A DNA stretch of 64,000 nt from a virus (IMGVR_UViG_3300025425_000010:9748-73747); one strand, 5' to 3'; numbered from the stretch's first letter, positions 1,164-63,877 are shown. The notes: generated by a model from the sequence alone, not told the origin. Numbers and translations: made by a program.

Positions 1164-1508
1164 TTAGTCGAGTATGTCCTTCAGTTGCATATCTCTAACT
1201 TTCTGTCTTATTACCTCATCACCCAAACCATCTTCTATTAATTTCAAAACTATGTTAAGTTTGTCTTTAACTATTTTATAACGATCCGAATTAATAATTT
1301 GTGACTCAATAGAATTACCCCTCCAAAGAACTTCCATTCGAGTTTCCTGAGCACCATCAACCGGAAAAATTATAGAATTAATATTCTTCATATAGGCATC
1401 CATAAATCCTTTTATTTTTTCCTCGGCTTTAAGACGACCAAGACCATTCACATTTATGTATACGACAAATATTGGTTTTTCTAAATTTAACTCTGTTTCT
1501 TCATTCAT
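1164..1508 (-). CDS. Hypothetical protein with C-terminal RxxxLxxIL tag
   Basis: ORF; ends RDMQLKDILD. Confidence 0.6.
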   Translation of the reverse strand: MNEETELNLEKPIFVVYINVNGLGRLKAEEKIKGFMDAYMKNINSIIFPVDGAQETRMEVLWRGNSIESQIINSDRYKIVKDKLNIVLKLIEDGLGDEVIRQKVRDMQLKDILD

Positions 1509-1722
1509 TTAATATCTCAATTAATTTTTTATTCCTATCACATCTATCAAATAGTATTTTACCGAATAACGTTAGTGATGCATTTGCCTTACTACCAATT
1601 ATTATACCCTTATCGTGTAGTTTATCAGCAATGTCAGGCCACTGTTCTTTCATTTCCATGAAGTTCAAAGTACCATCTATAGATTTTCTAAAAATTTTTA
1701 TATGACGGAACGTAAAACACAC
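1501..1722 (-). CDS. Hypothetical protein with C-terminal tag (start uncertain)
   Basis: Ends RNKKLIEILNE; overlaps the start of the next gene. Confidence 0.5.
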   Translation of the reverse strand: MCFTFRHIKIFRKSIDGTLNFMEMKEQWPDIADKLHDKGIIIGSKANASLTLFGKILFDRCDRNKKLIEILNE

Positions 1723-1929
1723 AAGTCTTTAGCTTGTGTGATGTAAGTGACATAAAAAATAAACAAAAAGGGGAGGATGTTAATATAATATATAATATGT
1801 CTGGGTTGAGGGACCAATTTCGGACTTTAAACAAAAAGGCGTTCTCGTTCAAATCTTTAGTTTGTGTGTAGTTCATATATAGTGATATAATTTTAATTTG
1901 TAAAGGTTTATAAAAAAGTACTAAATAAT

Positions 1930-2199
1930 ATGGATATTAAGAAGTTTAAACAGTTTTTCGAAGACGGTGACGGTGGTGGCGGTGATGGGGGTGGTGTTGG
2001 TATGGCCAATGCTACAACTGCTGGTATGGGCCCTATTGTATCAGCACAGCCAGGTACACTTCCCGGAACAACTGGAACGGAAGGATCAGGTGATATAGGA
2101 GTAACATTTAAGAAAAAGAAGAGAAAAAAGGGTGATGTTGGTGAAGTTTCTGATTTAAGAGATTTAAAGGATGAGGAAGGTATTGAGGAAGTAGATTAA
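1930..2199 (+). CDS. Gly-rich small protein with capsid-targeting-like leader
   Basis: MDIKKFKQFFED leader, low-complexity body. Confidence 0.6.
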   Translation: MDIKKFKQFFEDGDGGGGDGGGVGMANATTAGMGPIVSAQPGTLPGTTGTEGSGDIGVTFKKKKRKKGDVGEVSDLRDLKDEEGIEEVD

Positions 2200-2208
2200 A
2201 CGAAAGAA

Positions 2209-2271
2209 ATGAAACATTTAAAGAAATTTAACGAAACGAATATTGTTATGAGTGTGGATTATCTCCGATAA
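2209..2271 (+). pseudogene. Leader-only remnant or micro-ORF (MKHLKKFNETNIVMSVDYLR)
   Basis: Manual translation; carries the MKHLKKFNE leader, then stops after 20 aa. Confidence 0.4.
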
Positions 2272-2303
2272 TAGGTTATGTATTTGGATAAAGTTGGTTT
2301 ATC

Positions 2304-2966
2304 TCAGAAACACTTGATTCCGGGAATTTTCAATTCTTCACCCAATATAAGTAACATTCGGATAGAATATTGTACAATGCCAAGGTCGTGTGTGAATGGG
2401 AAGTGTCCATCACATCCATCATATACAGGTGAGTATGATGAGACCTCTTTATCATTTATATCAGATATGAGTCTTTGTAATGTTGGTCTTTCACAAACAG
2501 TGTGTTTGCCAATTTTCTGTGGATGTTTGGTAACGTCAGTGAATGTATTAGTAACCAATCCTGCTTTAGTTGCTATACTCTCACCATCTTTCAATCCCCA
2601 TGATTTTGTTATACACTCAACATCAAGTTCTGAATAAGTTCTATATATTCTCACACCAGGACGTACCTCATTACGATATTTATCAACATATTTCTTTTCA
2701 TTGAAGAATATAACGAAGTCAGCGTTTTCGGCCTGTATGTATATTATTTTACCTCTTTTACATCCATCAACTACACCAGCAGTTGCATTATGTAATTCCA
2801 GTGTCGTTTTGTAATTTTCTTGACGGGTTTTGTTTGGATCAAAAACATATCCGGCTTTTTTTAAAATTGCATGAATATCTCCCAGAGAATCTGTTATCTC
2901 TTTTACTTGTTTTTTCAAACTGTTGTGAAATATTCGGATTGTTCTTTCTATGTCGTAATAGTCCAT
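2304..2966 (-). CDS. Hypothetical protein
   Basis: 220-aa ORF directly behind a TACATTTG promoter element (2971-2978). Confidence 0.65.
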   Translation of the reverse strand: MDYYDIERTIRIFHNSLKKQVKEITDSLGDIHAILKKAGYVFDPNKTRQENYKTTLELHNATAGVVDGCKRGKIIYIQAENADFVIFFNEKKYVDKYRNEVRPGVRIYRTYSELDVECITKSWGLKDGESIATKAGLVTNTFTDVTKHPQKIGKHTVCERPTLQRLISDINDKEVSSYSPVYDGCDGHFPFTHDLGIVQYSIRMLLILGEELKIPGIKCF

Positions 2967-2986
2967 ATATCAAATGTACGAATAAT

Positions 2987-3910
2987 TTATGTAATATACC
3001 AACCAACTTTGGCATCTTGATTTATTCTGAAATAGTCGGCTAGTAACGGAATCTCCTCACTATCAATTTTATCATTAAATTTCTCACAATCACTACTTAT
3101 TATAACAGCTTTACTCCCATCACCAAGTATAACCATCTTATCGAATGACCTATCACTAACCATGTAAGAGTATAATATCTTAACTATTTCCTTTCTAAGT
3201 TTGTGAAAGTCTAAATAGGCAAAATCAAATAGGTGTTCTACATCGTGTCTATTATCATCAAGAGCTCTTAAATAATCACCAATGAATAATTTTCGATCTT
3301 CCAATGAAAGTTTCATAAGTTCTTCTTGCCAGTGTTCTTGGTGTCGGGCCTTTTCTAACTCAACGGCTGGGATATTTACTTTATGTGCTATGTTTGGTTT
3401 GAGCCCATATTGTAAAACCAGTTTATTAGTTCGTCTTAGGAATTCGGTACCAGTTACTTTACCATTTATCCTGACCTCTTGGCCTTTTATCTCAACGTTT
3501 TCACCATCTATAAGTAAATCGCCTCGTGAGGCTTTATATATCAGTGGTGATATGAAGATGAACATTAACTCACCCTCACCAGAAGCTGAGTTAGGTGTTC
3601 CTAATCCAACACTCCTCAATCTCCAAAGTGATTTAGTAAAATCTATCCACTTGGGTGTTATGTAATCATCTATATTCCCGCCTTCTTTGAAAAATGATAT
3701 ATCGAAAACTTTATTGTTTTCTACATCAGATATGAAGTTTTTTATTTGAAATAGTGTATCTTCTGATACTTCGCCATAAAACCTTACTATGGATCCAATT
3801 AAGGAATCTATTATACTATCTTTCTTCTTTTCATGTGAAACTTCTTTTAATATCGACATATTGTAACAGTGTTCGAGAAGAGTATTTTCAAGTTCTTTTA
3901 CTATATTCAT
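2987..3910 (-). CDS. Putative PD-(D/E)xK nuclease-fold protein
   Basis: GEGE....RGDLLIDGENVEIKG motif. Confidence 0.5.
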   Translation of the reverse strand: MNIVKELENTLLEHCYNMSILKEVSHEKKKDSIIDSLIGSIVRFYGEVSEDTLFQIKNFISDVENNKVFDISFFKEGGNIDDYITPKWIDFTKSLWRLRSVGLGTPNSASGEGELMFIFISPLIYKASRGDLLIDGENVEIKGQEVRINGKVTGTEFLRRTNKLVLQYGLKPNIAHKVNIPAVELEKARHQEHWQEELMKLSLEDRKLFIGDYLRALDDNRHDVEHLFDFAYLDFHKLRKEIVKILYSYMVSDRSFDKMVILGDGSKAVIISSDCEKFNDKIDSEEIPLLADYFRINQDAKVGWYIT

Positions 3911-4256
3911 ATAAATCTCCGAGTGTAGGCTTAGTTTCTTTTTCTACTCCCAACACTCTTTCTATCTGTTTTTTTCGAAAAGTTTGCTTATCGTATATAG
4001 AATCCATATCAATCTCTGATAACCTAGGGTGTCTTGGGTTCCGCAATCGTCTTCCTCCCCATTTATCATTTTCGTATGATGGACTAATATTTTTATCAAC
4101 ATATTTATATCTAATTTCACGACAAAGTGAATCGTTTTCATCATCTAAAGACCAAGCCGCATAATCATAAGGACCATCACGATAACCATCATATATATTA
4201 CCGTATTCGTCTATTCCCTCGTCAATAATTTCACGGATTTTCACTTTATACTTCAT
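3888..4256 (-). CDS. Hypothetical protein with near-C-terminal tag
   Basis: RKKQIERVL near the end; TATATTTG promoter element at 4265-4272. Confidence 0.55.
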   Translation of the reverse strand: MKYKVKIREIIDEGIDEYGNIYDGYRDGPYDYAAWSLDDENDSLCREIRYKYVDKNISPSYENDKWGGRRLRNPRHPRLSEIDMDSIYDKQTFRKKQIERVLGVEKETKPTLGDLYEYSKRT

Positions 4257-4310
4257 AATAAATACAAATATAAATAAAACATTTGACTTATATATTTAAA
4301 TATATAGTAT

Positions 4311-5214
4311 ATGTTGTATAATTACAAACAATTCATAAATGAGTCCAGACAAGATATAGATTCTATATGTCAGAAGTATGGTATAAAGAACTACACGATT
4401 AATGAGGATGGATCAATTGATGTTGACGGAGATGTTAATATACCTAATTGGGAATTGGTAGAATTACCCATCAAATTTGGAAATGTTAGTGGTGGTTTCA
4501 ATTGTTCTAATAATAAATTGGTTTTGTTAGAGGGTGCTCCATCTAGTGTTGATGGTGCTTTTTAGTTGTTATAATAATGAATTGACTTCGTTAGAGGGTT
4601 GTCCATCTAGTGTAGGTGGTGGTTTCTTTTGTTCTCGTAATAAATTGATTTTGTTAGAGGGAGCTCCATCTAGTGTTGATGGTGATTTCTATTGTTATAA
4701 TAATGAATTAACTTCGTTAGAGGGAGGACCATCAACTGTAGGTGGTGATTTCCATTGTTCTGATAATGAATTGACTTCGTTAGAGGGAGGACCATCAACT
4801 GTTGGTGGTAATTTCTATTGTTCTGGTAATAAATTAACTTCGTTAGAGGGAGCTCCATCTAGTGTTGATGGTCATTTCGGTTGTGCTTATAATAAATTGA
4901 CTTCGTTAGAGGGAGGACCATCAACTGTTGGTGGTGATTTCCTTTGTTCTGATAATAAATTAATCACATTAGAAGGATTCCCAACCTTGTTTAGACTAAC
5001 AACAAAAATTAATATTTCTCATAACCCAGTTAGAGAGGTGTATGAATTGTTCAGTGATTTGAAGGCAATTGAATATATGAACGAGACTGGTTGTATAAAT
5101 ACTGACACAATGGAGGTATATTACATTGCTCTATTGGATGTTTGGGAATACAGCGGTATGGAAATAGTAAAACCAGAGAATATTAAACTTAGACATTATA
5201 CATTGGTCTATTAA
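4311..5214 (+). pseudogene. LRR-like repeat protein, copy 1 (frameshifted at about 4559-4563)
   Basis: ORFs 4311-4565 and 4534-5214 join if one T is removed from the T5 run in GCTTTTTAG. Seven 21-aa repeats. N- and C-caps are homologous to copy 3. Confidence 0.75.
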
Positions 5215-6580
5215 TATATAGTGTATGTTATATAAGTATAGAGAATTCATAAATGAGTCCAGACAGGATATAGATTCTATTTGTCAGAAGTATAATATAA
5301 TAAACTATACAGTTAATGAGGATGGATCCATTGATGTTGATGGAAATGTTGATTTATCTAATCGGGAATTGATAGAATTACCGCTTAGATTTAGAAATGT
5401 TGGTGGTAATTTCGATTGTTCTGATAATAAATTGACTTCGTTGGAGGGAGCTCCAACATCTGTTGATGGTAATTTCTATTGTTCTGATAATGAATTGACT
5501 TCGTTGGAGGGAGCTCCATCTAGTGTTGATGGTGCTTTCGATTGTTCTGATAATGAATTGACTTCGTTAGAGGGAGGTCCATCTAGTGTTGGTGGTAATT
5601 TCAATTGTTATAATAATGGATTGACTTCGTTGGATGGTTGCCCATCTAGTGTTGATGGTGATTTCGATTGTTCTGGTAATAAATTGACTTCGTTGGAGGG
5701 AACATTGGTCTATTAATATATAGTGTATGTTATATAAGTATAGAGAATTCATAAATGAGTCCAGACAGGATATAGATTCTATTTGTCAGAAGTATAATAT
5801 AAAGAACTACATAATAAATGAAGATGGATCAATTGATGTTGACGGAGATGTTGATTTATCTAATCGGGAATTGATAGAATTACCGCTTAAATTTAGAAAT
5901 GTTAGTGGTTATTTCTATTGTCGAAATAATAAATTGACTTCGTTGGAGGGAGCTCCAACATCTGTTGATGGTAATTTCTATTGTTATAGGAATAAATTGA
6001 CTTCGTTGGAAGGAGCTCCATCTAGTGTTGGTGGTGATTTCAATTGTTCTGGTAATGGATTGACTTCGTTGGAGGGTTGTCCATCTAGTGTTGATGGTAA
6101 TTTCGATTGTTCTGATAATGAATTGACTTCGTTAGAGGGAGGTCCATCTAGTGTTGGTGGTAATTTCAATTGTTATAATAATGGATTGACTTCGTTGGAT
6201 GGTTGCCCATCTAGTGTTGGTGGTGATTTCAATTGTTCTGGTAATGGATTGACTTCGTTGGAGGGTTGTCCATCTAGTGTTAGTGGTGATTTTAGTTGTT
6301 TTTTCAATAAATTGACTTCGTTGGAGGGAGCTCCATCTACTGTTGATGGTAATTTCTATTGTTATAATAATGGATTGACTTCGTTGGAGGGAGCTCCATC
6401 TAGTGTTGGTGGTGATTTCTATTGTCGAAATAATGAATTGACTTCGTTGGAGGGAGCTCCATCTAGTGTTGATGGTAATTTCAATTGTTCTGATAATGAA
6501 TTGACTTCGTTAGAGGGAGGTCCATCTAGTGTTGGTGGTGATTTCTATTGTTCTGGTAATAAATTGACTTCGTTGGAGGG
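4500..6580 (+). repeat. 63-bp coding tandem repeats; exact 101-bp repeat (5200-5300 = 5702-5802) and exact 119-bp repeat (5536-5654 = 6101-6219)
   Basis: Direct sequence comparison. Confidence 0.9.
5225..5716 (+). CDS. LRR-like repeat protein, copy 2 (C-cap deleted)
   Basis: Four full 21-aa LTSLEGxPSSVxGxFxCxxN repeats, then jumps straight to the terminal TLVY. Confidence 0.75.
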   Translation: MLYKYREFINESRQDIDSICQKYNIINYTVNEDGSIDVDGNVDLSNRELIELPLRFRNVGGNFDCSDNKLTSLEGAPTSVDGNFYCSDNELTSLEGAPSSVDGAFDCSDNELTSLEGGPSSVGGNFNCYNNGLTSLDGCPSSVDGDFDCSGNKLTSLEGTLVY

Positions 6581-7208: not shown

Positions 7209-7565
7209 ATGGGTATGTGTATAATAGATATAATTAATAAAGTAATATACACACTCTTTGTGGCTGTGGGTGGTAATTTTTATTTGAATTGGCTGCTGGT
7301 AACTAACCCAACATCAAAAAATCCACTTATTAAGTGGTGTTGGGGTGTTATGTGTTGTAACAGCACATGGAATGTTAGAGATAGATATATTGATGCTTAT
7401 GTTTATGGTGTAATACACATAATAGGATGTGTTTTTATGATTTATTCTGGTGGGTTTTGGACAATTTGTAATTTCGTTATAAATGTCTATCCAATACTAG
7501 TTCAGTTATATATAGGTTTCAGATGTTATCGAATAATGCAGTATAAGAAATTACGATCTAAGTAA
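7209..7565 (+). CDS. Hypothetical membrane protein
   Basis: Hydrophobic segments. Confidence 0.55.
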   Translation: MGMCIIDIINKVIYTLFVAVGGNFYLNWLLVTNPTSKNPLIKWCWGVMCCNSTWNVRDRYIDAYVYGVIHIIGCVFMIYSGGFWTICNFVINVYPILVQLYIGFRCYRIMQYKKLRSK

Positions 7566-7796
7566 TTTCTTCAACCTGAGTTCACGTATCTCTTCCTTAT
7601 TCATCAATTTCTTATAAGTTTCTGAACAAACAGGACATGTCGATTTCTTTCGGTGTCTATTGGATCGATTTCGATAAATGTCTGATACATCCCTAAGACA
7701 TTCTGGACAGAACTTATTATCGGGATTCGTTAATATTGGTAGTGTTGTCCAAGTATAATTGATACCAAAGTGCCTTTCGAAAATTTTATAATCCAT
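7551..7796 (-). CDS. Zn-ribbon small protein with C-terminal tag
   Basis: CPEC and CPVC; ends RELRLKKLLRS. Confidence 0.65.
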   Translation of the reverse strand: MDYKIFERHFGINYTWTTLPILTNPDNKFCPECLRDVSDIYRNRSNRHRKKSTCPVCSETYKKLMNKEEIRELRLKKLLRS

Positions 7797-7798
7797 TT

Positions 7799-7996
7799 TT
7801 ATTTCTTTAATATTGTTTTTAGTTTTAAATCTCTTACTTCGGATTTTATTAATGTGTCTCCTTTGTTAAAATATTTCCGACAGTCCAGACACTGGTAATC
7901 CGAAACCATAGAGTATTGATTAAATGACACCACCAAACTATCACGGTAACAATGAGGACAATATCTATCTTCTGTACTTAGTGTTTTTGTAATCAT
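7799..7996 (-). CDS. Zn-ribbon small protein with C-terminal tag
   Basis: CPHC and CLDC; ends RDLKLKTILKK. Confidence 0.65.
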   Translation of the reverse strand: MITKTLSTEDRYCPHCYRDSLVVSFNQYSMVSDYQCLDCRKYFNKGDTLIKSEVRDLKLKTILKK

Positions 7997-8208
7997 GTCA
8001 ATAGTTCCTTTAACTTGAATTCTCTCACAGTAGCTTTAGTTAATGATTTATATATGGGAAAACTTATTGAGCAATCCATACACACATAAGCACTAAACAA
8101 AGTGAATCCACCATATTCACTAGTTAGGTTATTACTATAACACTCTGGACAATATCTAGATTTCCTTTTATCATCTAAATCACCTTCTGGATATATTCTT
8201 CCACTCAT
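7993..8208 (-). CDS. Zn-ribbon small protein with C-terminal tag
   Basis: CPEC and CMDC; ends REFKLKELLT. Confidence 0.65.
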   Translation of the reverse strand: MSGRIYPEGDLDDKRKSRYCPECYSNNLTSEYGGFTLFSAYVCMDCSISFPIYKSLTKATVREFKLKELLT

Positions 8209-8215
8209 AGGTTTA

Positions 8216-8404
8216 TTACATTCTGTCTAATATAGTAATGGCAATGAAGAAAAAACCAACAACTATTGTAAATATTGATGCTGATATAAAAGCCAATCGG
8301 AAGGTGGCGTATGCATATCCAAAAGGAAGACCTATAAGTGTGAATATAAGGAAAAATATCACATATATTGAGATAATTCGTAATGTATTTCTTAGTCGTT
8401 TCAT
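8216..8404 (-). CDS. Small two-TM membrane protein
   Basis: Two hydrophobic helices. Confidence 0.55.
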   Translation of the reverse strand: MKRLRNTLRIISIYVIFFLIFTLIGLPFGYAYATFRLAFISASIFTIVVGFFFIAITILDRM

Positions 8405-8922
8405 AGTTTTGTTTTTATTACTTTTAATATCGTATCTATATCATATGGGCTTGTCAAGACTGTGTGATCTATATTATTCTCTGATAATAAACTCTCATAT
8501 ATTTGATCCACTTTTTTAGCATTTTCTAAGGTTTGTGTTCGGCCATTCTGAACATACTCGAAGCTTCTCTCTAGATAGAAAGCCAAATTATTCATTTTAT
8601 TATACTCACACAAGACAAGATCTGTGAAATATGGATTGTTTCCGTTGTAATAGACAATAGAATTTAATAAAGGTGAGTCAGTTATTATGACATCGACTTT
8701 ATCAATTAATCGATGTGTTCGTTGATGTTGTTTTCCGAAGATATATAGTTGGTTTTCAATCTTTTTAAAAGACTCCTCCCATACTACTTCTTTGACATAC
8801 TCCGGTGCCATCTCAACATCGATTCCGTCCATTTTCATTCTAGCAAATAGATTTGCACATAGTGTTGATTTTCCAGTACCTGGACCACCGAATAAGCTGA
8901 TAATAAGTGTTTTTTCATTCAT
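8401..8922 (-). CDS. P-loop kinase/ATPase (AAA_28, NadR-like)
   Basis: GGPGTGKST Walker A and IITDSPLL. Confidence 0.75.
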   Translation of the reverse strand: MNEKTLIISLFGGPGTGKSTLCANLFARMKMDGIDVEMAPEYVKEVVWEESFKKIENQLYIFGKQHQRTHRLIDKVDVIITDSPLLNSIVYYNGNNPYFTDLVLCEYNKMNNLAFYLERSFEYVQNGRTQTLENAKKVDQIYESLLSENNIDHTVLTSPYDIDTILKVIKTKL

Positions 8923-9078
8923 ATACTATATATACGATAAATAATGGCATAAGATTTTAAAAAACTGAAAAATTATATTTCCGGAAGGTGATTTCATTTA
9001 AATTATCAAGAAATATAGTAAAAATATACTAGAGACTGTGTGTTTACTTATATATACATGTAAATAAATGTACCTATT

Positions 9079-9243
9079 ATGAAGAATAAGTTATTAAATG
9101 TAAGAATACCTGAGAAGTTGTTAAATGACTATAAAGAGTTTTGTGAGGAGAATACTTTCACGATGTCTAAGAGAATTCGTAAATTGATGGAGAATGATAT
9201 TAATAAGTGGAAGGAATATAGAGCGGCTAAACTACTTAAGTAA
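9079..9243 (+). CDS. Ribbon-helix-helix DNA-binding protein (not in ORF track)
   Basis: Manual translation MKNKLLNVRIPEKLLNDYKEFCEENTFTMSKRIRKLMEND..., an RHH pattern. Confidence 0.65.
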   Translation: MKNKLLNVRIPEKLLNDYKEFCEENTFTMSKRIRKLMENDINKWKEYRAAKLLK

Positions 9244-9510
9244 TTTTTCCAATTTTTTGTTACGAAATTCAGATTCACTCAACAGTTCGTCTTCATATAC
9301 AAATTTTGAATTAGTTGATGTATTGTCTATGGGTATGATGTGATATTCACAACATTTATCACCGGGGTAACATTGAGCACTATGTATGGTATATTTAAAA
9401 CCACGATAAAAAACCACGGACTTTATTCCGAATTTAACACTAACATACGATTTTTCATACTCTTCATCACTACCTCCCGTACCAATAAATTTCCTTTGTA
9501 ACCAACTCAC
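9232..9510 (-). CDS. Hypothetical protein with C-terminal tag
   Basis: Ends RNKKLEKLLK; related to 10114-10344 (EY.I...KFVYE.E). Confidence 0.6.
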   Translation of the reverse strand: MSWLQRKFIGTGGSDEEYEKSYVSVKFGIKSVVFYRGFKYTIHSAQCYPGDKCCEYHIIPIDNTSTNSKFVYEDELLSESEFRNKKLEKLLK

Positions 9511-10127
9511 TTTTTGAGTATGCTATTTAATTTAACATCTCTCATAACTGCTTTCAACCAACCTTCTGATGGTTTTGGTTCTTCACCATCTACGTCCAAT
9601 ACCCACATATCACCTTCTTTAAAATGATCACACCCATTGGCGTTATATTTACCAGAAGTTAAACTAGTTTCATCAAATATATCAGCATAACATCCATAAT
9701 CGGTGGATTCCACGGTGTAGTTGGAGTACCCTCGATCCTGTGAGTAATATCTTGAGCAATCTTCACAACTTTTTAACGGAGTATTGTTTAATAAATCGAT
9801 ATCGATTTTTATTTGCTCGATTGGATTTATGTTTGATAACTTATCTCTCAATTTTTTGATGAATAAGATTTTGACTTCTTCATCAACAATTATCGGGGTT
9901 TGTAATCTATCCACGGTGTGTATTTCGGTACATAGTGCTCCATTATATTCGGAAACAGATGCTATGGATTTATACTCATATCTACTCCACCCAGTACCTA
10001 CACATAAATAACATGACCAAAGACCTTCTTCCAAAGTATCTAGTTCGAATTGAACATTGACAGTAGGGTAACCATTTTTAGATGATAAACCCTTTCCCTT
10101 TACTCTCTTTGCCTTAATTACTTTCAT
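9507..10127 (-). CDS. Divergent riboflavin kinase-like domain fused to a Cys-rich domain, with C-terminal tag
   Basis: VKGKG...GYPTVN, EIH..D, FIKKLR...QIKID resemble the flavokinase G.PTAN/E.H/QI..D motifs. Ends RDVKLNSILKK. Confidence 0.55.
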   Translation of the reverse strand: MKVIKAKRVKGKGLSSKNGYPTVNVQFELDTLEEGLWSCYLCVGTGWSRYEYKSIASVSEYNGALCTEIHTVDRLQTPIIVDEEVKILFIKKLRDKLSNINPIEQIKIDIDLLNNTPLKSCEDCSRYYSQDRGYSNYTVESTDYGCYADIFDETSLTSGKYNANGCDHFKEGDMWVLDVDGEEPKPSEGWLKAVMRDVKLNSILKK

Positions 10128-10344
10128 TTAATAATTCGTGTAGTCGTTTGTTACGTACATTTTTAACCAATTCTACCTCAGATTCATATACAAATTTAAT
10201 CCTAACCGTGTCACTGGACATCACAATCTTATACTCAATTATATCATTAACTAAGAGTACTTCATTTATACACCACTGGGTATTATTATGAAAGACAAAA
10301 TCTTCCTTAGTATATAATGCTCTTATGTAGGGTATATCATTCAT
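10114..10344 (-). CDS. Hypothetical protein with C-terminal tag
   Basis: Ends RNKRLHELLNESN. Confidence 0.6.
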   Translation of the reverse strand: MNDIPYIRALYTKEDFVFHNNTQWCINEVLLVNDIIEYKIVMSSDTVRIKFVYESEVELVKNVRNKRLHELLNESN

Positions 10345-49956: not shown

Positions 49957-50013
49957 CTTGTAAATATAGTGGAAAATTTCAAAATATAGTAATTTATTTT
50001 CAATATATAGTAT

Positions 50014-50598
50014 ATGGATATTTTAAAATATAGTGAATTTATTACTGAGAATTACCAAGACTCACCAGAAGAGTATATAAAAAATGCTCTTGTTAAAATC
50101 CAGAAACGGGTCGAAGGTCTTTTTGCCGAGCAAGAGGATGATGGTACCGAAGATGGTGATGAAGAGAATGATGAGGAAGTAATGACTATTGGTCAGGCAA
50201 TGAAAAAAGGTGAGGAGAAAGAAAAAAAGAATTCCAAAATGTCATTAACTGATATGGGTCTTCGGTTAGAGTCTTCGGAATCTAGTAATTATTCTGCTAT
50301 TTTAGATAATGTTAGTATGAAATTCTCTGATGAGGATGGATGGTATAGTCTGTTCATAGGTATCTCACTCGAAGAAGCAAAGCCAGAAGATAGTGAGAAA
50401 GATTTCTCTGATGAAGATATAAAGGAATGTTCGGTTAAATTTAAGAAGTATAATCTCGATGATAATCTTGTTGGTGTAATTGGACCAAGAACTGTTAAAT
50501 GTGATGATGTGAATGAGGAAATGCTTGTAAATCTAAAAATTGAATTGGATGAAGATTCTGGTGGTGAGAATGAAGGCATAGGAATAGAGACTGAGTAA
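50014..50598 (+). CDS. Acidic leader-bearing protein
   Basis: MDILKYSEFITE leader; AATATATAG upstream. Confidence 0.65.
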   Translation: MDILKYSEFITENYQDSPEEYIKNALVKIQKRVEGLFAEQEDDGTEDGDEENDEEVMTIGQAMKKGEEKEKKNSKMSLTDMGLRLESSESSNYSAILDNVSMKFSDEDGWYSLFIGISLEEAKPEDSEKDFSDEDIKECSVKFKKYNLDDNLVGVIGPRTVKCDDVNEEMLVNLKIELDEDSGGENEGIGIETE

Positions 50599-53697: not shown

Positions 53698-54031
53698 TTT
53701 CAATTTGATAACTTCCGAAACCTGTAAAGATTGTAGGAATTTCATTTGGTATAAATCCAATCGGGATTTCAATGTACCATATAATCATTTTGAGGAAGGT
53801 AGAATTAACAGTGGGATAGTTGAAATAGTTTGTGGTGATGTGTTTGGTATGGCTCAAATGGATTTCCAAATATACTCATCTGTTGTGGAATGTTCAGAAG
53901 TGATGTTATTCAATGATAAGTTATCACCTGTATTTTTATCGAGGGATCTTCTTGAATTAAATAGTAGTCATTTTACAGATATTACTAAAGTGTATCTACG
54001 TAACCATAAGTTAGACCAGTTGTTGAGGTAA
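53684..54031 (+). CDS. Hypothetical protein with C-terminal tag
   Basis: Ends RNHKLDQLLR. Confidence 0.55.
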   Translation: MRKANFNLITSETCKDCRNFIWYKSNRDFNVPYNHFEEGRINSGIVEIVCGDVFGMAQMDFQIYSSVVECSEVMLFNDKLSPVFLSRDLLELNSSHFTDITKVYLRNHKLDQLLR

Positions 54032-54059
54032 TCCGTAGTGTCCTATTAATATATAGGAT

Positions 54060-54965
54060 ATGTACTTAGTTAAATATGATGAATTTTTATTAGAAACCTA
54101 TCAGAATGAATTTAATATGATAAATGAATCTAAAATTGACTTACGTAGTAAATTTATTAAGCTATTGAAATTATCTTTGTCTAAGAGTTATAAATATCGT
54201 AGGAAAATACTTGTGTATGGTGTTGCCTCTCTCATTGCTGTTTCCGGTGTTTCCGTTGTATCGTCTTTATTTGCTAATGATAGTGATGTTAAGAGATTGG
54301 CCGATGATGCAGGTGTAACCGAAGTTATAGGTCAGGAAATCGAGAAGATGGAAAAGATACCGGTTATAAATACAGGACCAATCGAAACGGATTCAATTGA
54401 AATGCCTAAGGTTAAGAAAAAAGTTATTAGTGGTGATAGATCATGGGTAATGAGTAAATCTCCGAGTAATATGAGACTTTCACAGAAGGGATGGGACTAT
54501 ATCCGCCACGAAGAAGGTTCTACTAAAAGAAAGGGACAACCAGTTTTGAAAGCTTATAGTATAGGTGATGGTATGATAACTGTTGGTTGGGGTCATGCTG
54601 AAAAGGTTGAGAAATCAAAATTCGAGGTCGGTGATGTTATTACAATGGATCAAGCACAAGATTTCTTGAAGAAAGACCTTACTGTTGCTGCCGATGGAGT
54701 TAGGCGTATATTGAAGAGATGGGAGGATGAGTATATTGATGTGTATCTATCACAGGATCAATTTGATGTACTTGTATCATTAGCTTATAATTCTGGTGTG
54801 GGTGCGTTAAATCGTAGTTCGGTTATGAGGCAAGTTAAAAGAGGAAATATCGAGAAAGCTGGTAAGAAATTGAAATCTTGGAGAGTTAATAAGAAATTTC
54901 CTGGATTACAGACTAGGAGAAATTTAGAATATAAACAGTTTATGTCATATCAGACATTTTCTTAA
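54060..54965 (+). CDS. GH24 lysozyme with N-terminal leader and hydrophobic segment
   Basis: HEEG..AY..GDG..TVGWGH, QFDVLVSLAYNSG, GLQTRR; leader MYLVKYDEFLLE...MINES. Confidence 0.88.
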   Translation: MYLVKYDEFLLETYQNEFNMINESKIDLRSKFIKLLKLSLSKSYKYRRKILVYGVASLIAVSGVSVVSSLFANDSDVKRLADDAGVTEVIGQEIEKMEKIPVINTGPIETDSIEMPKVKKKVISGDRSWVMSKSPSNMRLSQKGWDYIRHEEGSTKRKGQPVLKAYSIGDGMITVGWGHAEKVEKSKFEVGDVITMDQAQDFLKKDLTVAADGVRRILKRWEDEYIDVYLSQDQFDVLVSLAYNSGVGALNRSSVMRQVKRGNIEKAGKKLKSWRVNKKFPGLQTRRNLEYKQFMSYQTFS

Positions 54966-55873: not shown

Positions 55874-56254
55874 ATGAAAAACACATAGATTGATTCCAAA
55901 TTTAAAGAAACAAAACTAGTCACGATTACCCGTACTGACTTTGAAAACTTCGGATACACTGTTCCACAGACAGGCCATTCCTTGGCTGACTTTGCTTATG
56001 AATTCCCTGAGGAGTTTAGGCACTGGAAAGAAACATCCAACTCTATTATATGCTTGGGTTGTAAGTCTGAACCAGAACTACTAAAACTTTACGAGAAATT
56101 ATCACAACTGACGAATACGGTCAAATTCTACGAACCTGACGTTGATGAGTGGACATCTATTTGCCTTATGGGTACTACCGAAGTACGTAAGAAACTGTCA
56201 CATCTTCCTTTATTAAAACCAAAAAACTTCAAGAGATATGAAAGAATTGATTGA
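55874..56254 (+). CDS. Peptidyl-tRNA hydrolase 2-like protein with in-frame TAG at codon 5
   Basis: MKNT*IDSKFKETKLVTITRTD...QTGHS...W..SNSIICL..FYEPD..TSIC..LPLL. The conserved N-terminal strand and Q..H lie upstream of the ORF-track TTG start. Confidence 0.7.
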
Positions 56255-56675
56255 GAATAGAAGACAGAACCTTATCAAGATGGGTAAAATTAAGAATGAT
56301 GTTGCATCATCTACTGATCGGATTAGAAAGATATTGATACCGATAACAAATACGATGAGAGATATTGAACGTGATATGGTATCTAAATTCAATAGTAGCC
56401 GAATAAGTTGTGGAGAACCATTATATCCGGTACGAACTTTATTTGACATCGATAGGATATCCGTTAGTGGTAATTTGATAAAAATAAAGGTATCAGATTA
56501 TCATTGTGGTTCGTTAGATAGATATACCATAAAAGTCCCATTGAAATATTTGGATATGTCATATGGTGAATTGGTATTATCACACACTGAATGGGTGGAA
56601 CGGGAATTTGAACGAAGGGTGAATATTTATAAAGGTCTGAAACGAAATAAGAAAATTAAAAAAATATTAAACTGA
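56238..56675 (+). CDS. Hypothetical protein with C-terminal tag
   Basis: Ends RNKKIKKILN. Confidence 0.6.
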   Translation: MKELIENRRQNLIKMGKIKNDVASSTDRIRKILIPITNTMRDIERDMVSKFNSSRISCGEPLYPVRTLFDIDRISVSGNLIKIKVSDYHCGSLDRYTIKVPLKYLDMSYGELVLSHTEWVEREFERRVNIYKGLKRNKKIKKILN

Positions 56676-56688: not shown

Positions 56689-56937
56689 ATGGAAAAAATC
56701 GAACTGTTGAATCGTAAATTGGAATTGGCTACTCAAAAAATGAAAATAGCCCAGAACTGGAATTATAAAAACTACGTATCTGATGAAGCAGCATTGGAAG
56801 CATTGGTTCAGTTAAGGAATTCTGGGTCTAGGCTTCATAGTGATGAATTTAGATTGGTTCCAGTGTATGTCTTACCAAAATCAGAAATAAGAAAAATAAC
56901 AATAAGTAAAATAATAAAAAAAGAAGAAAAATTATGA
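56689..56937 (+). CDS. Hypothetical protein with tag-like C-terminus
   Basis: RKITISKII. Confidence 0.5.
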   Translation: MEKIELLNRKLELATQKMKIAQNWNYKNYVSDEAALEALVQLRNSGSRLHSDEFRLVPVYVLPKSEIRKITISKIIKKEEKL

Positions 56938-59516: not shown

Positions 59517-59542
59517 CGTACCTACTATATATAAATAATAGT

Positions 59543-59986
59543 ATGTGTGAAACAAATTCGGTATTATGCGAAACATCAAGTATGTCAGATCAAATCATAT
59601 ATAATCTTGATCCAATTAGACGAGCACAGGAGTTAGATTATAATCAGGTCAAAATTGAGACGGTGGAATTTACCTTTTTTGAAGATAAATTATTTCTGGT
59701 GTTATATGATGATATCTCATATTACATAAAACAGTATTTACTTGATTTAGAGAATGATATTTATGATACGAGACATGATATAGTATATGCTTGTCTTGAG
59801 AAGAGATATATTGGATTGGATGTAGAGTTACTTGATAAGATAGCTAATAATTCCAGTACATCACTATCACATGCAATCAATAACGCCTTGGATGAGGTTG
59901 ATAGGATTCTGAAACCATTGGTAATACCTCGTAGGGAACGAAAGGAGAGGGAAGACAAGCTTAATTCGATTCTTCGAGGTGAGTAG
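59543..59986 (+). CDS. Hypothetical protein with C-terminal tag
   Basis: Ends REDKLNSILRGE. Confidence 0.6.
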   Translation: MCETNSVLCETSSMSDQIIYNLDPIRRAQELDYNQVKIETVEFTFFEDKLFLVLYDDISYYIKQYLLDLENDIYDTRHDIVYACLEKRYIGLDVELLDKIANNSSTSLSHAINNALDEVDRILKPLVIPRRERKEREDKLNSILRGE

Positions 59987-60434
59987 TCAACTCATCAATT
60001 AAAACCCTCTGTTGGTCTTCTATCTTATTATAAGCTTTGTCTAGTTTGAAGAATTTAGCTTCATATATTTCATCTCTGTCAAATCTAGATTTCTTTATAT
60101 CCCATCCTTTGAGATACTTCTGTATATCTTCTTTGTTGAGTCTGTATAGATAGGCTGTTAGTTTCTTATCAACACCATTCTTACGGTATTTAGCTTTTAA
60201 CTTGGATTCGAAATTCTTATGTATTTTGATACCAGTTTCTTCTCTGAGTTCGTGTAATGCAGACTTTAAAACGTTGCCCTCAACATGTCCTTTGGGTATA
60301 GACCACTTATTTTTCTGACCTTTAAACTTCTTTGGGCTAACTAGTAATATACGGTCTTCGATTAGTATGATTACACCGGATAGCTTGTGTACTTCTCTTG
60401 ATTTAAACTTTTCATATAACGAGATAAACTCCAT
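59961..60434 (-). CDS. Nudix hydrolase with leader
   Basis: WSIPKGHVE..ALHELREETG; leader MEFISLYEKF. Confidence 0.85.
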   Translation of the reverse strand: MEFISLYEKFKSREVHKLSGVIILIEDRILLVSPKKFKGQKNKWSIPKGHVEGNVLKSALHELREETGIKIHKNFESKLKAKYRKNGVDKKLTAYLYRLNKEDIQKYLKGWDIKKSRFDRDEIYEAKFFKLDKAYNKIEDQQRVLIDELTTHLEESN

Positions 60435-60485: not shown

Positions 60486-61073
60486 TTATAATAATAAATC
60501 ATTCAATTTTCGACCACGAACTATTTGTGTTGGTCCTTCATAATCGGGATATAAATTGTTTGGGTTTCCTAGAAAAGTATAAACATTCTTTTGAATTTCA
60601 TCACTATTTAGTAATTTTTTTGATTTTGTTAATAATTTATTGTTGTATTTGTAGTAATATATACTATTTTCCTCATATACTTTAACGTAATATTTACCTG
60701 ATTGTGCAAGGCAAAAACGTCTATTCCATGGGAAATCATTACTAACCCTCATTAAAAAAAATATTATTGTGGATACAAATATATATAATGATATAAACAC
60801 TTGACGAATAGTATGCTCAATTATGGTGAATGAATTACTTTCAGGGTCTAAGTATCCTATGGATTTTTCAGTGATTTTTATTTTATTGTTTAGGTTATAG
60901 GCAATGTATTCAACACCACTCAGATTATGTGTAAATTCACCAACGACATCATATTTATGTGGTTGTTTGGATGATTTTAGTAGTATTATTGAGCAAATTA
61001 ATATACTTAAAATCGTTAAAACCTTACCCCAGTTATAATGTAAGAAATATTTTAAGAAGTGTAGTCTTTTCAT
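60486..61073 (-). CDS. Two-TM membrane protein with C-terminal tag
   Basis: Ends RGRKLNDLLL. Confidence 0.6.
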   Translation of the reverse strand: MKRLHFLKYFLHYNWGKVLTILSILICSIILLKSSKQPHKYDVVGEFTHNLSGVEYIAYNLNNKIKITEKSIGYLDPESNSFTIIEHTIRQVFISLYIFVSTIIFFLMRVSNDFPWNRRFCLAQSGKYYVKVYEENSIYYYKYNNKLLTKSKKLLNSDEIQKNVYTFLGNPNNLYPDYEGPTQIVRGRKLNDLLL

Positions 61074-61202: not shown

Positions 61203-61544
61203 TTATTTTAAAATTTCTGTTAATTTTTTATCTCGATAGTATGGTTTAAGGCCCATAGGTACACCTTTTAATAGATATTTTCTCATTCTCGTACCAAGTG
61301 GTTTAGAACCATGATTTACATCGAATAGTATTTTTGACGTACCCTCATACACATCAATAACATTGTCTAGATTTACCCAGTATATGATTGTTTCATCGTG
61401 TAGTGTTGCTTGGCTACTACCATCGGATAATCTATCTATAACCCATCCATTAAATTGATCCAATGGCATTATCACATTGAATTGAGTTACTTCTTTCATA
61501 TAATCGAAAGAGAATGAATAGATATCACCCGGATTATATTTCAT
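61203..61544 (-). CDS. Hypothetical protein with C-terminal tag
   Basis: Ends RDKKLTEILK. Confidence 0.6.
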   Translation of the reverse strand: MKYNPGDIYSFSFDYMKEVTQFNVIMPLDQFNGWVIDRLSDGSSQATLHDETIIYWVNLDNVIDVYEGTSKILFDVNHGSKPLGTRMRKYLLKGVPMGLKPYYRDKKLTEILK

Positions 61545-61554
61545 AATTGAATTA

Positions 61555-61821
61555 CTATGCACTGAGAGCTGATATTAACAAGAATAAGATAATGCCTATG
61601 ACAAGTGATTGTTTACCCCATTGATTCATTTTCCATATGAAGTCTGAGGTATGACAGGACATTTCATAAGACTGTCCCGTAGATTTAGCATATATCCAGG
61701 TGAGTCCGAGAGTAGCTACTGAGGACACTCCGATTATTATGATAATAACTATCCCGAAAATGAGAGTCAATACGAGAATTATTAATCCAATCTTCCAAAT
61801 CTTACTTAGTAAATTTTCCAT
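61555..61821 (-). CDS. Small membrane protein
   Basis: Hydrophobic helices. Confidence 0.55.
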   Translation of the reverse strand: MENLLSKIWKIGLIILVLTLIFGIVIIIIIGVSSVATLGLTWIYAKSTGQSYEMSCHTSDFIWKMNQWGKQSLVIGIILFLLISALSA

Positions 61822-61851
61822 AGTATAAATGTACGGATAATATACCAACCA

Positions 61852-62373
61852 TCAAAGTCGGATAATCTTATCGTACTTTTCTAACTTAGGGTCGATAGGT
61901 TGAGTTGAATCAATTAACTCTTTCATCAGGTTCTTCTTGATTGATTTCTTCTCGGCTATAAATCGTGATTTGTTTCTTATATCATACTCATCGTCTTCTA
62001 AAATTGGAAAGATAACGGCAATCTTATAGAATTTCTTACTGAAGAAACCTAGGTTAGAACGTCTTCTCTTACCTCTGAGGTTTGTAAAGTCGATAACGGT
62101 GTTCTCACTGGCTTCGTTACATTCTCTCATTTGGTCTTTGACATACTTCTTTATGAATTTCCAGTCAGCTTCTTTCCATGCTCGGTCATAATCACCATCA
62201 CCAACTTTATCGAGTTCGAGTACGAGATTATCTGTTGAGATGTGTCTGAATGTGTCAGGTATTAGAACAGTATTTAAGAAAGTAGTTTTTCCGCTCAATG
62301 GTGGTCCGATAAGGATCATAACATATGGCTTATCTAGTCTTTCTACTAATTTTCTAATTTCTCCTGGATACAT
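61852..62373 (-). CDS. Polynucleotide kinase-like P-loop protein (AAA_33)
   Basis: GPPLSGKTT, ISTD, VIDFTN..RR. Confidence 0.75.
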   Translation of the reverse strand: MYPGEIRKLVERLDKPYVMILIGPPLSGKTTFLNTVLIPDTFRHISTDNLVLELDKVGDGDYDRAWKEADWKFIKKYVKDQMRECNEASENTVIDFTNLRGKRRRSNLGFFSKKFYKIAVIFPILEDDEYDIRNKSRFIAEKKSIKKNLMKELIDSTQPIDPKLEKYDKIIRL

Positions 62374-62395
62374 AACTCTATAAAGGTACTATTTT

Positions 62396-62905
62396 TTAAC
62401 TATATAACCAACTGATGGCGATTATTGTTTTAGCATCCATGAAGAGTTCGGGGTTTAGTTGATCCATCTCTAAATATAATATGTCAATTTCTTCATTCTC
62501 GGAAGCTAATCCACCACCTTCTTCAATCTGATTAGATACTTCACAGTAATATACTGTTAGCTTCTCTGTGTTTCCACCAGGTGATACATAGAATTCGCTT
62601 ATCTTCTCGATGGAGTCGGTTTCATATCCGATTTCTTCTAAGATTTCTCTCTTCATAGCCTCTACTGGATCTTCGCCTGGGTGGTCTAATGTACCAGCAA
62701 CAATCTCAACAACATCTTGTGATGCTCCTGGTCTAAATTGTGATACTAATATGTATCTATCCTTGATAGTGTCATATACTAAGGCTGAAACAGCGTCAGG
62801 TCGTACCATAACTTCACGTTGAACCGTTTCTCCTGATTTTGTTTCTACATCAAGTTCTTCGATTGATAGAAATCCTTTATATTTTACTCTTCTGTTTTTA
62901 ATCAT
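62396..62905 (-). CDS. Nudix hydrolase (ADP-ribose pyrophosphatase-like)
   Basis: QFRP, EIVAG..GE..AMKREILEEIG, SPGG, DAKT. Confidence 0.9.
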   Translation of the reverse strand: MIKNRRVKYKGFLSIEELDVETKSGETVQREVMVRPDAVSALVYDTIKDRYILVSQFRPGASQDVVEIVAGTLDHPGEDPVEAMKREILEEIGYETDSIEKISEFYVSPGGNTEKLTVYYCEVSNQIEEGGGLASENEEIDILYLEMDQLNPELFMDAKTIIAISWLYS

Positions 62906-63285
62906 GTTATTAATCCTTTTAGTGTTTTTTCACGCCTTTGTTGTTTGATAAGTTCTTTACTGAACGCAGATTTTAATATACTGCGTATGTGTATTTTATT
63001 ATTGACAAATCCTTCATTTACTTGAATATATGCACCGGTTTCCGCATCACCAAGATTAAAGTTACAATATACTTCATAATCACTAAATCCAAATATATTT
63101 GAAGAGGATATGAATGGGTATTGTACATTCGTTTTAATAATTGGATCAATTTCTTCTTTTAAATATCTTCTAATTATACCTCTGACTTTCCAACGCTCAT
63201 ATAGTGTTGTTTTGAGTATGATAATACCAACAGTTTCAATAACTAGGTATATGATAGATATTAATATGATATTACTTAGTATCAA
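62902..63285 (-). CDS. Membrane-anchored protein with C-terminal tag
   Basis: Ends REKTLKGLIT. Confidence 0.55.
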   Translation of the reverse strand: MILSNIILISIIYLVIETVGIIILKTTLYERWKVRGIIRRYLKEEIDPIIKTNVQYPFISSSNIFGFSDYEVYCNFNLGDAETGAYIQVNEGFVNNKIHIRSILKSAFSKELIKQQRREKTLKGLIT

Positions 63286-63541
63286 TTGTGTTTTCTTTGC
63301 TTAGTTGTTCAAAGTCATTCTCAAAAAGGTTCTGTCTCATAAACCACTTCTCTGATTTACCAGTTTTTGTAGTAACATTAACTTCCATTATAAACATACC
63401 TTGGTGAACTTACATAAGCATCATCAATTGTAGAACATTTACAGTAATCATTATCATCACACTCACATTCCGTGTGGTTACTTGATTCGTAATCAAATAA
63501 ATATTTTACGTCTATTTTACCTATTTCAATTTTCATAATAA

Positions 63542-63877
63542 TCAAATGTACGTATAATTATCTATCTTTAGTAAATTAACCAGTGTCATATTTCTAAAAG
63601 CTCTCATAATCGCCTCATTAACTTCACCGGTTGTGTGTGTTTTAAATTTATCTATATCGGATATATACATGTCTACATACACTGTTTTGTTGTTAGTGTG
63701 TTCTAATTCAATTGCGTTGGTTACTTCTGTCCAATATCCATTGGTTTTCATTTCTGACTTTAAATATACGTTAGTTTTATTATGTGGTATTCTTTCCCAA
63801 TCCATAACATTTACAGATTCCACATCATTATTGACTCTATTATATTTATAAGTTATTTTATGTAGGTATTTTTCCAT
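63542..63877 (-). CDS. Hypothetical protein with tag-like C-terminus
   Basis: RNMTLVNLL. Confidence 0.55.
   Translation of the reverse strand: MEKYLHKITYKYNRVNNDVESVNVMDWERIPHNKTNVYLKSEMKTNGYWTEVTNAIELEHTNNKTVYVDMYISDIDKFKTHTTGEVNEAIMRAFRNMTLVNLLKIDNYTYI

Follow-up and report, generated by a model that had tools for sequence, protein, structure and literature searches.

A C-terminal helical tag shared by unrelated proteins in a clade of huge phages

The DNA analyzed here, hereafter the window, is the 64,000-nucleotide stretch IMGVR_UViG_3300025425_000010:9748-73747, which corresponds to bases 9748-73747 of a 73.7-kb viral contig and has a G+C content of ~32%. Many otherwise unrelated proteins encoded in the window end in the same short peptide, here called the tag. 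The full tag is a helix of ~14 residues, with an S/T-x-x-E cap followed by hydrophobic-R-[D/E/N]-x-K-[L/I]-x-x-[I/L]-[L/I]. Purifying selection acts on it at the level of the protein, and its form is uniform in each genome but varies between sister lineages of huge phages. With moderate confidence, we favor the reading that this tag is a lineage-specific docking helix with a carboxylate behind it, read by one co-evolving cytoplasmic partner.

C-terminal enrichment and shape of the tag

All 26 nine-residue segments (9-mers) listed in the initial annotation of this DNA were found in frame at the named open reading frames (ORFs). The stop codon lies 0-2 residues beyond the 9-mer in 18 of these cases and 3-8 residues beyond it in six, and the longest tails have 12 residues (the ORF at 48598, with an acidic ...ENLPF end) and 20 residues (the ORF at 3888). 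The strict motif, R-x-x-K-[LI]-x-x-[LIV]-[LIM], requires Lys at position 4, which is present in 18 of the 26; the other eight are looser and have Q, R, T, or V there. Two further tags (RGPKLEYLL and RSQKIKGII) are located on the contig upstream of the window.

To assess enrichment, genes were called on the complete contig by a simple procedure, which gave 127 ORFs with 92% coverage, and the C-terminal zone was set at the final 25 residues of each protein. Of 2159 C-terminal positions, 18 match the strict motif, compared to two of the 19443 positions that are internal (odds ratio 82, p 1.5e-16); the looser motif has 25 matches in the C-terminal zone and four elsewhere. No C-terminal match on the contig was obtained with the controls K..K, K..R, or the motif read in reverse. 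When the C-terminal zone of each protein was shuffled, 0.37 genes were tagged on average, compared to 25 observed, with a maximum of four in 300 shuffles. About a fifth (~20%) of the contig genes are tagged. When the last 25 residues are removed, the carriers are mutually unrelated by BLASTP; the exceptions are small zinc ribbons, two or three in number, including 7799 and 7993. Almost none of the carriers on the contig has a Pfam match. Of the two internal strict matches, that in the homing-endonuclease paralogue at 30441 is a chance match, since its paralogues have unrelated residues at the aligned positions.

Five codons (AGA, AGG, CGT, CGA, and CGG) encode the conserved Arg, and at least five occur at the Leu/Ile positions (TTA/TTG/CTN for Leu). 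Because the codons differ at the conserved positions, conservation occurs at the protein level rather than in the DNA, as the initial annotation had stated. With the above controls, composition, chance, and a DNA-level signal are largely refuted as causes of this pattern.

To describe the tag, we pooled 239 tagged proteins from the contig and its relatives. The consensus is R-[DEN]-x-K-[LI]-x-x-[IL]-[LI], with D, E, or N at position 2 in 68% of the tags. Ahead of the Arg, position -5 favors S/T/D, position -2 favors E, and position -1 is preferentially hydrophobic, which constitutes a helix capping box. On a helical wheel, the hydrophobic residue at position 0, K4, I8, R1, L5, and L9 occupy one half and the variable residues occupy the other. 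Exactly one residue separates the 9-mer from the stop codon in 116 of the 239 tags, and the residue directly after the 9-mer is most often K (22%), N (16%), or D (14%). Among tails of at least three residues, 77% have D/E within the first four positions, compared to 45% expected from composition (p 2.5e-8, with orthologues counted separately; ~73% by a hand estimate with one repeated tail collapsed). A negative charge is therefore located one to four residues past the helix, provided either by the chain end, mostly one residue on, or by D/E.

Models of two carrier families are available. In the AlphaFold2 model of the family of the 114-aa protein at 34932-35276 (RQIKLSKVL at 34947-34973, minus strand), the tag forms a helix at residues 98-112 after a stretch with a predicted local distance difference test (pLDDT) score below 50. 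In that of the 181-aa protein at 43572-44117 (RNMKLTQIL at 44085-44111, plus strand), the tag is a confident terminal helix at residues 170-180 with a pLDDT of ~90; a fold search with this model found no significant match in the PDB. In both family alignments, the best-conserved segment is the tag. Separately, the 310-aa carrier at 44114-45046, which has a weak terminal tag (RYDVLRNIL at 45011-45037, plus strand), contains an extra copy of the motif, RDGKLRDLL, at residues 19-27 (window 44168-44194); this copy is the second of the two internal strict matches and is found at the same place in the orthologue from locus L001.

Conservation and carriers across huge phages

The contig is a member of a clade of huge (~640 kb) phages. 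Its closest matches in the phage collection are two unannotated huge phages, LR745206 and LR756502 (635-642 kb), with weaker matches to Lak phages, and IMG/VR contains many related contigs of up to 676 kb. The contig DNA was found in 24 sequencing runs, all of salt-lake metagenome DNA, and no RNA run was listed among them. Three relatives were fetched whole, namely, W02 (LR745206; 635 kb, 944 genes), G002 (640 kb with terminal repeats, 100% complete by CheckV, 973 genes), and G004 (348 kb, 25% G+C, 554 genes), the last of which has a von Willebrand factor A (VWA) protein at 47% identity. We also fetched 80 related loci around the conserved VWA gene; one further relative, G001, is 676 kb long and 98% complete.

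The tag is kept in syntenic orthologues on two IMG/VR contigs with a GyrB at 60% identity. Seven carrier families with bodies 24-46% identical retained the tag, and in the family of the 696-aa protein at 32800-34890 (RNIKLDNIL at 32818-32844, minus strand), 12 of 15 orthologues have it at 32-46% identity. A word-indexed homologue search with a 114-aa carrier returned only the query itself. Among the 80 VWA loci, the tag is present throughout the huge-phage clade. By comparison, ~35 T4-like loci with 24-30% G+C, which are equally or more AT-rich, have zero C-terminal tags by the motif. Single proteins in three of these tag-free loci (L028, L046, and L036) have endings similar to R-K-N-K-L-N-N-I-I (e.g., ...IRKNKLNNIISITES), such that isolated look-alikes of the tag exist outside of the clade.

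The whole genomes differ in the form of the tag. W02 has 131-135 tagged genes among its 944 (p 7e-109), and G002 has 85-86 among its 973 (p 7e-76) in a variant form, E-R-K-x-K-I-x-x-I-F. LR756502 mostly uses a third form, R-D-x-K-L-x-x-L-G-I-COOH. In G004, the Arg-containing tag (R-tag) has no C-terminal occurrence genome-wide and 14 internal matches, and 67 of the 554 genes end exactly in K-[ML]-G-L-L-COOH, a pattern that occurs eight times elsewhere in that genome. The fuller form of this ending is [E/N]-[S/A/G]-x-K-[M/L]-G-L-L-COOH (loci L118-L135). The K-[ML]-G-L-L end was found in one gene of W02 and in none of G002. The 67 carriers in G004 have a median length of 113 aa and belong to 54 BLAST families. 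When the two tags are aligned on the Lys, that of G004 has Glu in place of the invariant Arg. No swapped-tag orthologues between G004 and the R-tag genomes were found by BLASTP, because the carriers evolve too fast for such pairs to be detectable.

These distributions bear on the explanation that the tag has no reader, being either a portable end-cap that protects the C-terminus of new small proteins or a by-product of AT-rich composition or of a DNA or RNA signal. K, I, L, and N are common in AT-rich genomes, and the confident terminal helix modeled for the family at 43572 would suit an end-cap. However, controls based on shuffling, internal positions, and genomes of equal or lower G+C gave essentially no matches, and codons vary at every conserved position. 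Moreover, an end-cap needs no invariant Arg and would not switch as a block between lineages. We consider this explanation very unlikely.

The carriers are short (median 113-126 aa) and poorly characterized; the tagged proteins of the relatives form 86 BLAST families, of which ~4 have any Pfam match. Their turnover is rapid: homologues in G002 were found for 2.2% of the tagged and 14.5% of the untagged proteins of W02. Tagged genes account for 9-14% of the genes in the three genomes fetched whole, and they form clusters: there are 40 adjacent tagged pairs in W02 compared to 19 expected and 24 in G002 compared to eight expected. TGA stop codons are two to three times more frequent in tagged genes than in other genes (32 and 17%, respectively, in W02; 30 and 11% in G002), an excess that could stem from ATGA-type overlaps of stop and start codons where genes are densely packed in arrays.

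Tagged genes are depleted of a late-type promoter motif, scored by simple matching as ATATATA or TATAAATA within 35 nt of the start. This motif was found upstream of six of the 135 tagged and 214 of the 809 untagged genes in W02 (p 5e-10), and of two of the 86 tagged and 185 of the 887 untagged genes in G002 (p 2e-6). In the window, a host-type (Bacteroidota) TAnnTTTG site at 11134 is located upstream of the tagged run at 7551-10344. A different element, AATATATA, is located exactly 12 nt 5' of the ATG in the genes 4311, 5225, 5727, 50014, and 54060 (sites at 4299-4311, 5213-5225, 5715-5727, 50002-50014, and 54048-54060), all of which encode an N-terminal leader in which the product starts with M-x-Y-K-Y-x-E-F-I/L. 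The equivalent leader in W02, M-K-Y-L-K-x-F-N-E, is found on ~60 proteins. The leader resembles the capsid targeting sequence (CTS) of T4 (MKTYQEFIAE). In W02, the leader is present on two of the 135 tagged and 57 of the 809 untagged proteins (p 0.011). The tag and the leader are thus nearly exclusive, and the initial claim that the tag is absent from core enzymes and from proteins with the leader holds.

Three carriers have membrane segments, in agreement with the initial label. These are a 171-aa protein at 49441-49956 with RNNKLDKII as its final residues (49444-49470), a two-pass 195-aa protein at 60486-61073 (RGRKLNDLL at 60492-60518), and an N-terminally anchored 127-aa protein at 62902-63285 with a weak tag (REKTLKGLI at 62908-62934), all on the minus strand. 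Based on the positive-inside rule, the tagged end of each is predicted to be cytoplasmic, including the C-terminal part of the first, the C-terminus of the second, and the C-terminal domain of the third.

One explanation that these carrier data address is that the tag is a capsid-loading signal, analogous to the T4 CTS, the C-terminal helix of the P22 scaffold, or encapsulin cargo peptides, and that the tagged proteins are packed in the head and injected. The tag is a short terminal peptide on small unrelated proteins, and huge heads can hold cargo. Like the tag, the T4 CTS of the internal proteins and Alt is a common terminal address for unrelated proteins of one phage, and both encapsulin cargo peptides and the P22 scaffold helix are short C-terminal elements; in P22, a basic C-terminal helix binds the coat protein. 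However, the CTS is N-terminal, occurs on late proteins, and is cleaved off, whereas the tag is C-terminal and occurs on non-late genes. The encapsulin and P22 elements dock on one protein shell, and their cargoes are made together with that shell, whereas the genes of tag carriers lack late-type promoter motifs and some encode integral membrane proteins. The strong depletion of the late-type motif, the separate CTS-like leader behind the AATATATA promoters, and the presence of tagged integral membrane proteins make capsid loading highly improbable.

Candidate readers and rival explanations

The placement of one terminal peptide on unrelated proteins for recognition by one partner is a known principle, as seen in ssrA-type degrons, sliding-clamp tails, the T4 CTS, and encapsulin peptides. 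In defining features, the tag differs from each of these four systems. Consistent with the initial statement that no description of it was known, we found none in the literature on this clade, on shared C-terminal motifs of jumbo phages, or on phage ClpS.

The initial annotation had proposed a short linear motif read by one hub. This general idea is supported by the facts that fast-diverging orthologues keep the tag, that it is uniform per genome and differs between sister lineages, and that it has helical periodicity; none of the hubs named at that time is supported, as described below. In the docking reading that we favor, the conserved face (the hydrophobic residue at 0, R1, K4, L5, I8, and L9) and the carboxylate would dock on one common reader, which would change together with the tag across lineages. 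Such co-evolution is suggested by the use of ...L-G-I-COOH, E-R-K-x-K-I-x-x-I-F, and K-[ML]-G-L-L-COOH in related huge phages, and a cytoplasmic location of the reader is suggested by the predicted cytoplasmic ends of the membrane carriers. The outcome would be that the early accessory proteome is handled as one group.

For the handling itself, one possibility is that an AAA+ protease or adaptor disposes of the tagged proteins at a set time or tethers them; in its favor, long-lived enzymes and virion proteins do not have the tag, the tag is located at the chain end, and this clade is rich in Clp parts. Recruitment to a phage-made site is a slightly less probable candidate and fits with a motif that is helical and folded, and chaperoning is unlikely. 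As a tentative extension, huge phages of this group may run a previously undescribed, proteome-wide addressing system, in which a per-lineage helix tag and a phage-encoded, co-evolving receptor gather, hold, or dispose of the non-late accessory proteins at a defined time. If the tag is an address label, it provides, for each genome of these largest known phages, a single handle on ~100 proteins whose function is unknown, and its reader, once found, would show how these viruses organize or time their early program. It would also represent a portable, orthogonal peptide-receptor pair with natural variants by lineage. Even with no reader at hand, the tag can be used in annotation to separate the non-late accessory proteome from virion cargo (which has the N-terminal leader) and core enzymes, and the tag type serves as a lineage marker.

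Several observations weigh against the docking reading. No reader was found, and docking is suggested by the sequence pattern alone. The uniformity of the helix would be equally compatible with tags that bind one another. The tag in the 43572 family may pack on its own protein rather than being free, given its pLDDT of ~90, and a free carboxylate is not strictly required, since some tails extend to 20 residues and one copy near an N-terminus is conserved. In addition, the tagged genes of G004 are not depleted of the late-like motif, and the promoter evidence as a whole comes from simple motif matching.

The main rival is self-association, in which tags bind each other as antiparallel or bundled helices and thereby form oligomers or a common assembly with no separate reader. 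An amphipathic helix with Arg at the start and a negative charge past the end would pair in an antiparallel dimer, and within-genome uniformity with between-lineage divergence is also expected of a self-binding module. SHOCT (PF09851) is a short C-terminal domain that is suspected of oligomerization. The tag resembles the second SHOCT helix, as both have S/T-x-x-E-aromatic ... K ... L-L at the C-terminus of diverse proteins, and a true SHOCT protein (298 aa; PF09851, E 3e-4) is encoded upstream on the contig. However, the tag lacks the first SHOCT helix and its spacing after the Lys differs by one residue, and the SHOCT model matched none of the 28 tag fragments, even at E values up to 10. In G002 and G004, the orthologues of the true SHOCT protein have a zinc ribbon in place of the SHOCT end. 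Other points against self-association are that 9-14 residues are very short for a stable bundle, that indiscriminate mixing of >100 unrelated proteins has no obvious use, and that in the antiparallel model, the Glu that replaces Arg in G004 would repel the terminal carboxylate. Overall, we regard self-association as rather unlikely.

The hub named first in the initial annotation was the phage ClpP, such that the tag would be a degron that delivers early proteins to the Clp protease. A bona fide ClpP is encoded at the left edge of the window (PF00574, E 5e-55), ClpP was also found in W01, W02, and G003, and a ClpA-like unfoldase was found in W01, W02, and G004. The tag is also located at the chain end of early proteins of a short-lived type. 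Degrons and tethers of AAA+ proteases (ssrA, the MuA-type C-motif 2, and the SspB tail) are portable chain-end peptides for one machine with a nearby carboxylate, which the tag resembles. Degrons of the ssrA/ClpX type lie at the very chain end and need the free carboxylate; 116 of the 239 tags stop one residue past the 9-mer and acidic residues take the place of the chain end in longer tails, and tails of up to 20 residues and the N-proximal copy are also found. However, no ClpP was found in the tag-rich G001 and G002, and the ClpA-like matches in these two are weak AAA_2 hits below the family cut-off (best E ~0.002), such that the co-occurrence with a cognate protease expected of ssrA/ClpX degrons does not hold for phage-encoded ClpP and ClpA-like proteins. 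Conversely, G005 has a ClpP at 60% identity and its sampled 20-kb locus (L075) has no tag. Based on this distribution across tag-bearing and tag-free genomes, ClpP cannot be the general reader. The peptide itself also differs from ssrA-type degrons. Those recognized by ClpX end in small non-polar residues (LAA) or in a basic and then hydrophobic stretch (RRKKAI), whereas the tag ends in a variable, polar residue. Its conservation also follows a helical period, with the invariant Arg and Lys as part of the conserved face, and such periodicity would be unusual in a degron that is unstructured. Furthermore, ssrA-type tags occur on few substrates, whereas the present tag is found on ~9-14% of the genes in complete relatives and ~20% of those on the contig. 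A degron for the phage ClpP is thus quite improbable.

The adaptor ClpS was found in five of five tag-bearing huge-phage genomes (W02 180414-180695, G002 595409-595705, G004 32147-32428, W01, and G001), and no match was found in the control genome of Bacteroides thetaiotaomicron. The N-D-D...H motif of the N-degron pocket is intact in the phage ClpS. As the canonical pocket of N-degron adaptors is kept, ClpS was set aside as a reader of the tag and most likely reads N-termini. Such a role was also proposed for the ClpS of jumbo phages (PMC7824862).

Another hub named initially was the pair formed by a MoxR-type AAA+ ATPase and a VWA-metallopeptidase (16939-18066 and 28866-30350), of which tagged proteins would be clients or substrates, with the carboxylate bound at the VWA metal site. 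C-terminal carboxylates bind VWA metal sites elsewhere, and a negative charge past the helix would suit the metal-ion-dependent adhesion site (MIDAS). The pair is core to W02, G002, and G004, and members of the R-tag clade have VWA proteins with 66-83% identity. In several genomes, the gene of the 696-aa carrier and a series of tagged genes adjoin the VWA gene. A complex prediction with Mg/Zn, VWA residues 13-494 (42-row alignment), and the last 77 residues of the 696-aa protein (11 rows) had a score of 0.00, which is neither for nor against binding. However, the pair is common to the ~35 tag-free T4-like loci (40-45% identical), and its proposed role in T4-like jumbo phages, namely, chaperoning and processing during virion assembly (PMC7824862), is at odds with tagged genes that are non-late. 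We therefore consider this pair a very improbable reader.

The third hub was the sliding clamp, with the tag acting like a PCNA-interacting protein (PIP) box or the tails of T4 gp43, gp33, and gp55 and tethering accessory proteins to phage DNA. The tag is a hydrophobic C-terminal motif on many proteins, and, like the clamp tails of T4/RB69 and the PIP box, it would be a shared, lineage-variable peptide for one hub. Bacterial clamp-binding ends include QLGLF and QLVLGL, and the K-L-G-L-L-COOH of G004 and the L-G-I-COOH of W01 recall these. However, the family B polymerases of the same phages end in ...MDIFGGFK (W02 130568-131992) and ...SSIFDF (G002 514604-516571), which are clamp-binding tails of the RB69/T4 type. 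A clamp is thus an unlikely reader, as these polymerase tails differ from the tag of the same genome. The replication enzymes of the window have no tag, and the tag is found on non-replicative ORFans and membrane proteins, has another consensus, and fits none of Qxx[LIM]xx[FY][FY], QL[SD]LF, and [ST]LDFL[FY]. Searches with the clamp models PF09116, PF02916, and PF02767 found nothing above the cut-offs in five genomes, although the RB69-like polymerase tail implies a divergent clamp. Taken together, a clamp-binding role is most improbable. Two W02 proteins guessed to be a clamp and a clamp loader were also rejected: one weakly matches tail-tube/baseplate proteins and the other matches no solved chain.

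Other candidates were rejected as well. The FKBP, rhomboid, and NusG of the contig have no homologue by BLASTP in G002 or G004. In the core common to W02, G002, and G004 (72 W02 proteins by BLASTP), the named families are replication, nucleotide-metabolism, and structural proteins. The core proteins considered comprise a terminase, a gp32-like protein, a phosducin/thioredoxin-like protein, and others without a match, and none of these resembles a peptide reader. Membrane-targeting amphipathic helices of the MinD and FtsA type are found on soluble proteins and have basic residues that flank a purely hydrophobic face; in the tag, R1 and K4 are inside the conserved face on the helical wheel, and three carriers are already integral membrane proteins. 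GlyGly-CTERM signals for rhombosortase were considered on account of the rhomboid gene in the window. These signals combine a transmembrane segment at the C-terminus with a basic cluster behind it, whereas a hydrophobic segment is absent from the tags, and the rhomboid was not found in G002 and G004 by BLASTP.

Tag instances and other genes in the window

The remaining instances are distributed along the whole window. On the minus strand, the leftmost are the ORFs at 1164-1508 (114 aa; RDMQLKDIL at 1170-1196, one residue before the stop) and 1501-1722 (73 aa; RNKKLIEIL at 1510-1536, two residues before the stop), followed by a weak, tag-like RKKQIERVL (3951-3977) in the ORF at 3888-4256, 20 residues before the stop. 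The tagged run at 7551-10344 on the same strand includes two zinc-ribbon proteins at 7551-7796 (81 aa; RELRLKKLL, 7560-7586) and 7799-7996 (65 aa; RDLKLKTIL, 7808-7834), proteins at 7993-8208 (71 aa; REFKLKELL, 7999-8025) and 9232-9510 (92 aa; RNKKLEKLL, 9238-9264), a riboflavin-kinase-like protein at 9507-10127 (206 aa; RDVKLNSIL, 9516-9542), and a protein at 10114-10344 (76 aa; RNKRLHELL, 10129-10155). Also on the minus strand are the carriers at 35614-36078 (154 aa; RKIKLLILL, 35623-35649), 61203-61562 (119 aa; RDKKLTEIL, 61209-61235), and 63542-63877 (111 aa), the last with a weak tag, RNMTLVNLL (63569-63595), eight residues before the stop.

On the plus strand, tags are found in the proteins at 42808-43257 (149 aa; RKYKLDKLI as the final residues, 43228-43254), 46174-46500 (108 aa; RNWKIKKLI, 46465-46491), 48598-49134 (178 aa; RNNKIEHIM, 49069-49095, ahead of its 12-residue acidic tail), 53678-54031 (117 aa; RNHKLDQLL, 53999-54025), 56238-56675 (145 aa; RNKKIKKIL, 56643-56669), 56689-56937 (82 aa; a weak RKITISKII, 56890-56916), and 59543-59986 (147 aa; REDKLNSIL, 59948-59974). 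Regarding the initial labels of the carriers, the flavokinase-like assignment was confirmed (PF01687, E 5e-7) and that of the zinc ribbons was confirmed weakly. The ORF at 44114 had been called a dead terminase and the 696-aa ORF a coiled coil; neither label obtained a Pfam match.

In addition to ClpP, FKBP, and the MoxR-type ATPase and metallopeptidase-VWA pair, the contig encodes both type II topoisomerase subunits (one intein-bearing), a flap endonuclease, NusG, RNA ligase, a CCA-adding enzyme, a rhomboid protein (36054-36641), lysozyme, and several homing endonucleases. The intein is located in the GyrA-like topoisomerase II subunit (37114-38883), with a HINT/intein splicing domain at residues ~132-220. 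Five homing-endonuclease-like paralogues of 560-647 aa (24919-26808, 26920-28806, 30441-32123, and 38939-40765 in the window, and 1787-3730 in locus L005) all terminate in ...Y-R-I-W-D-C-G-K; DUF7487 was scanned on the one at 30441-32123 only. Two of these five are inserted between the VWA gene and its usual neighbors, and one is located between the two topoisomerase genes.

The 145-aa ORF at 23010-23447 contains a Cas12f1-like TNB domain (E 8e-24) and is probably a TnpB-type remnant, as a portion of a 388-aa ORF in G004 matches it at 80% identity. Finally, a 179-aa protein at 58051-58590 matches the anti-CBASS Acb1 and 2H phosphoesterase families (E 3e-7), and two NUDIX genes (59961-60434 and 62396-62905) are found near this Acb1-like ORF.

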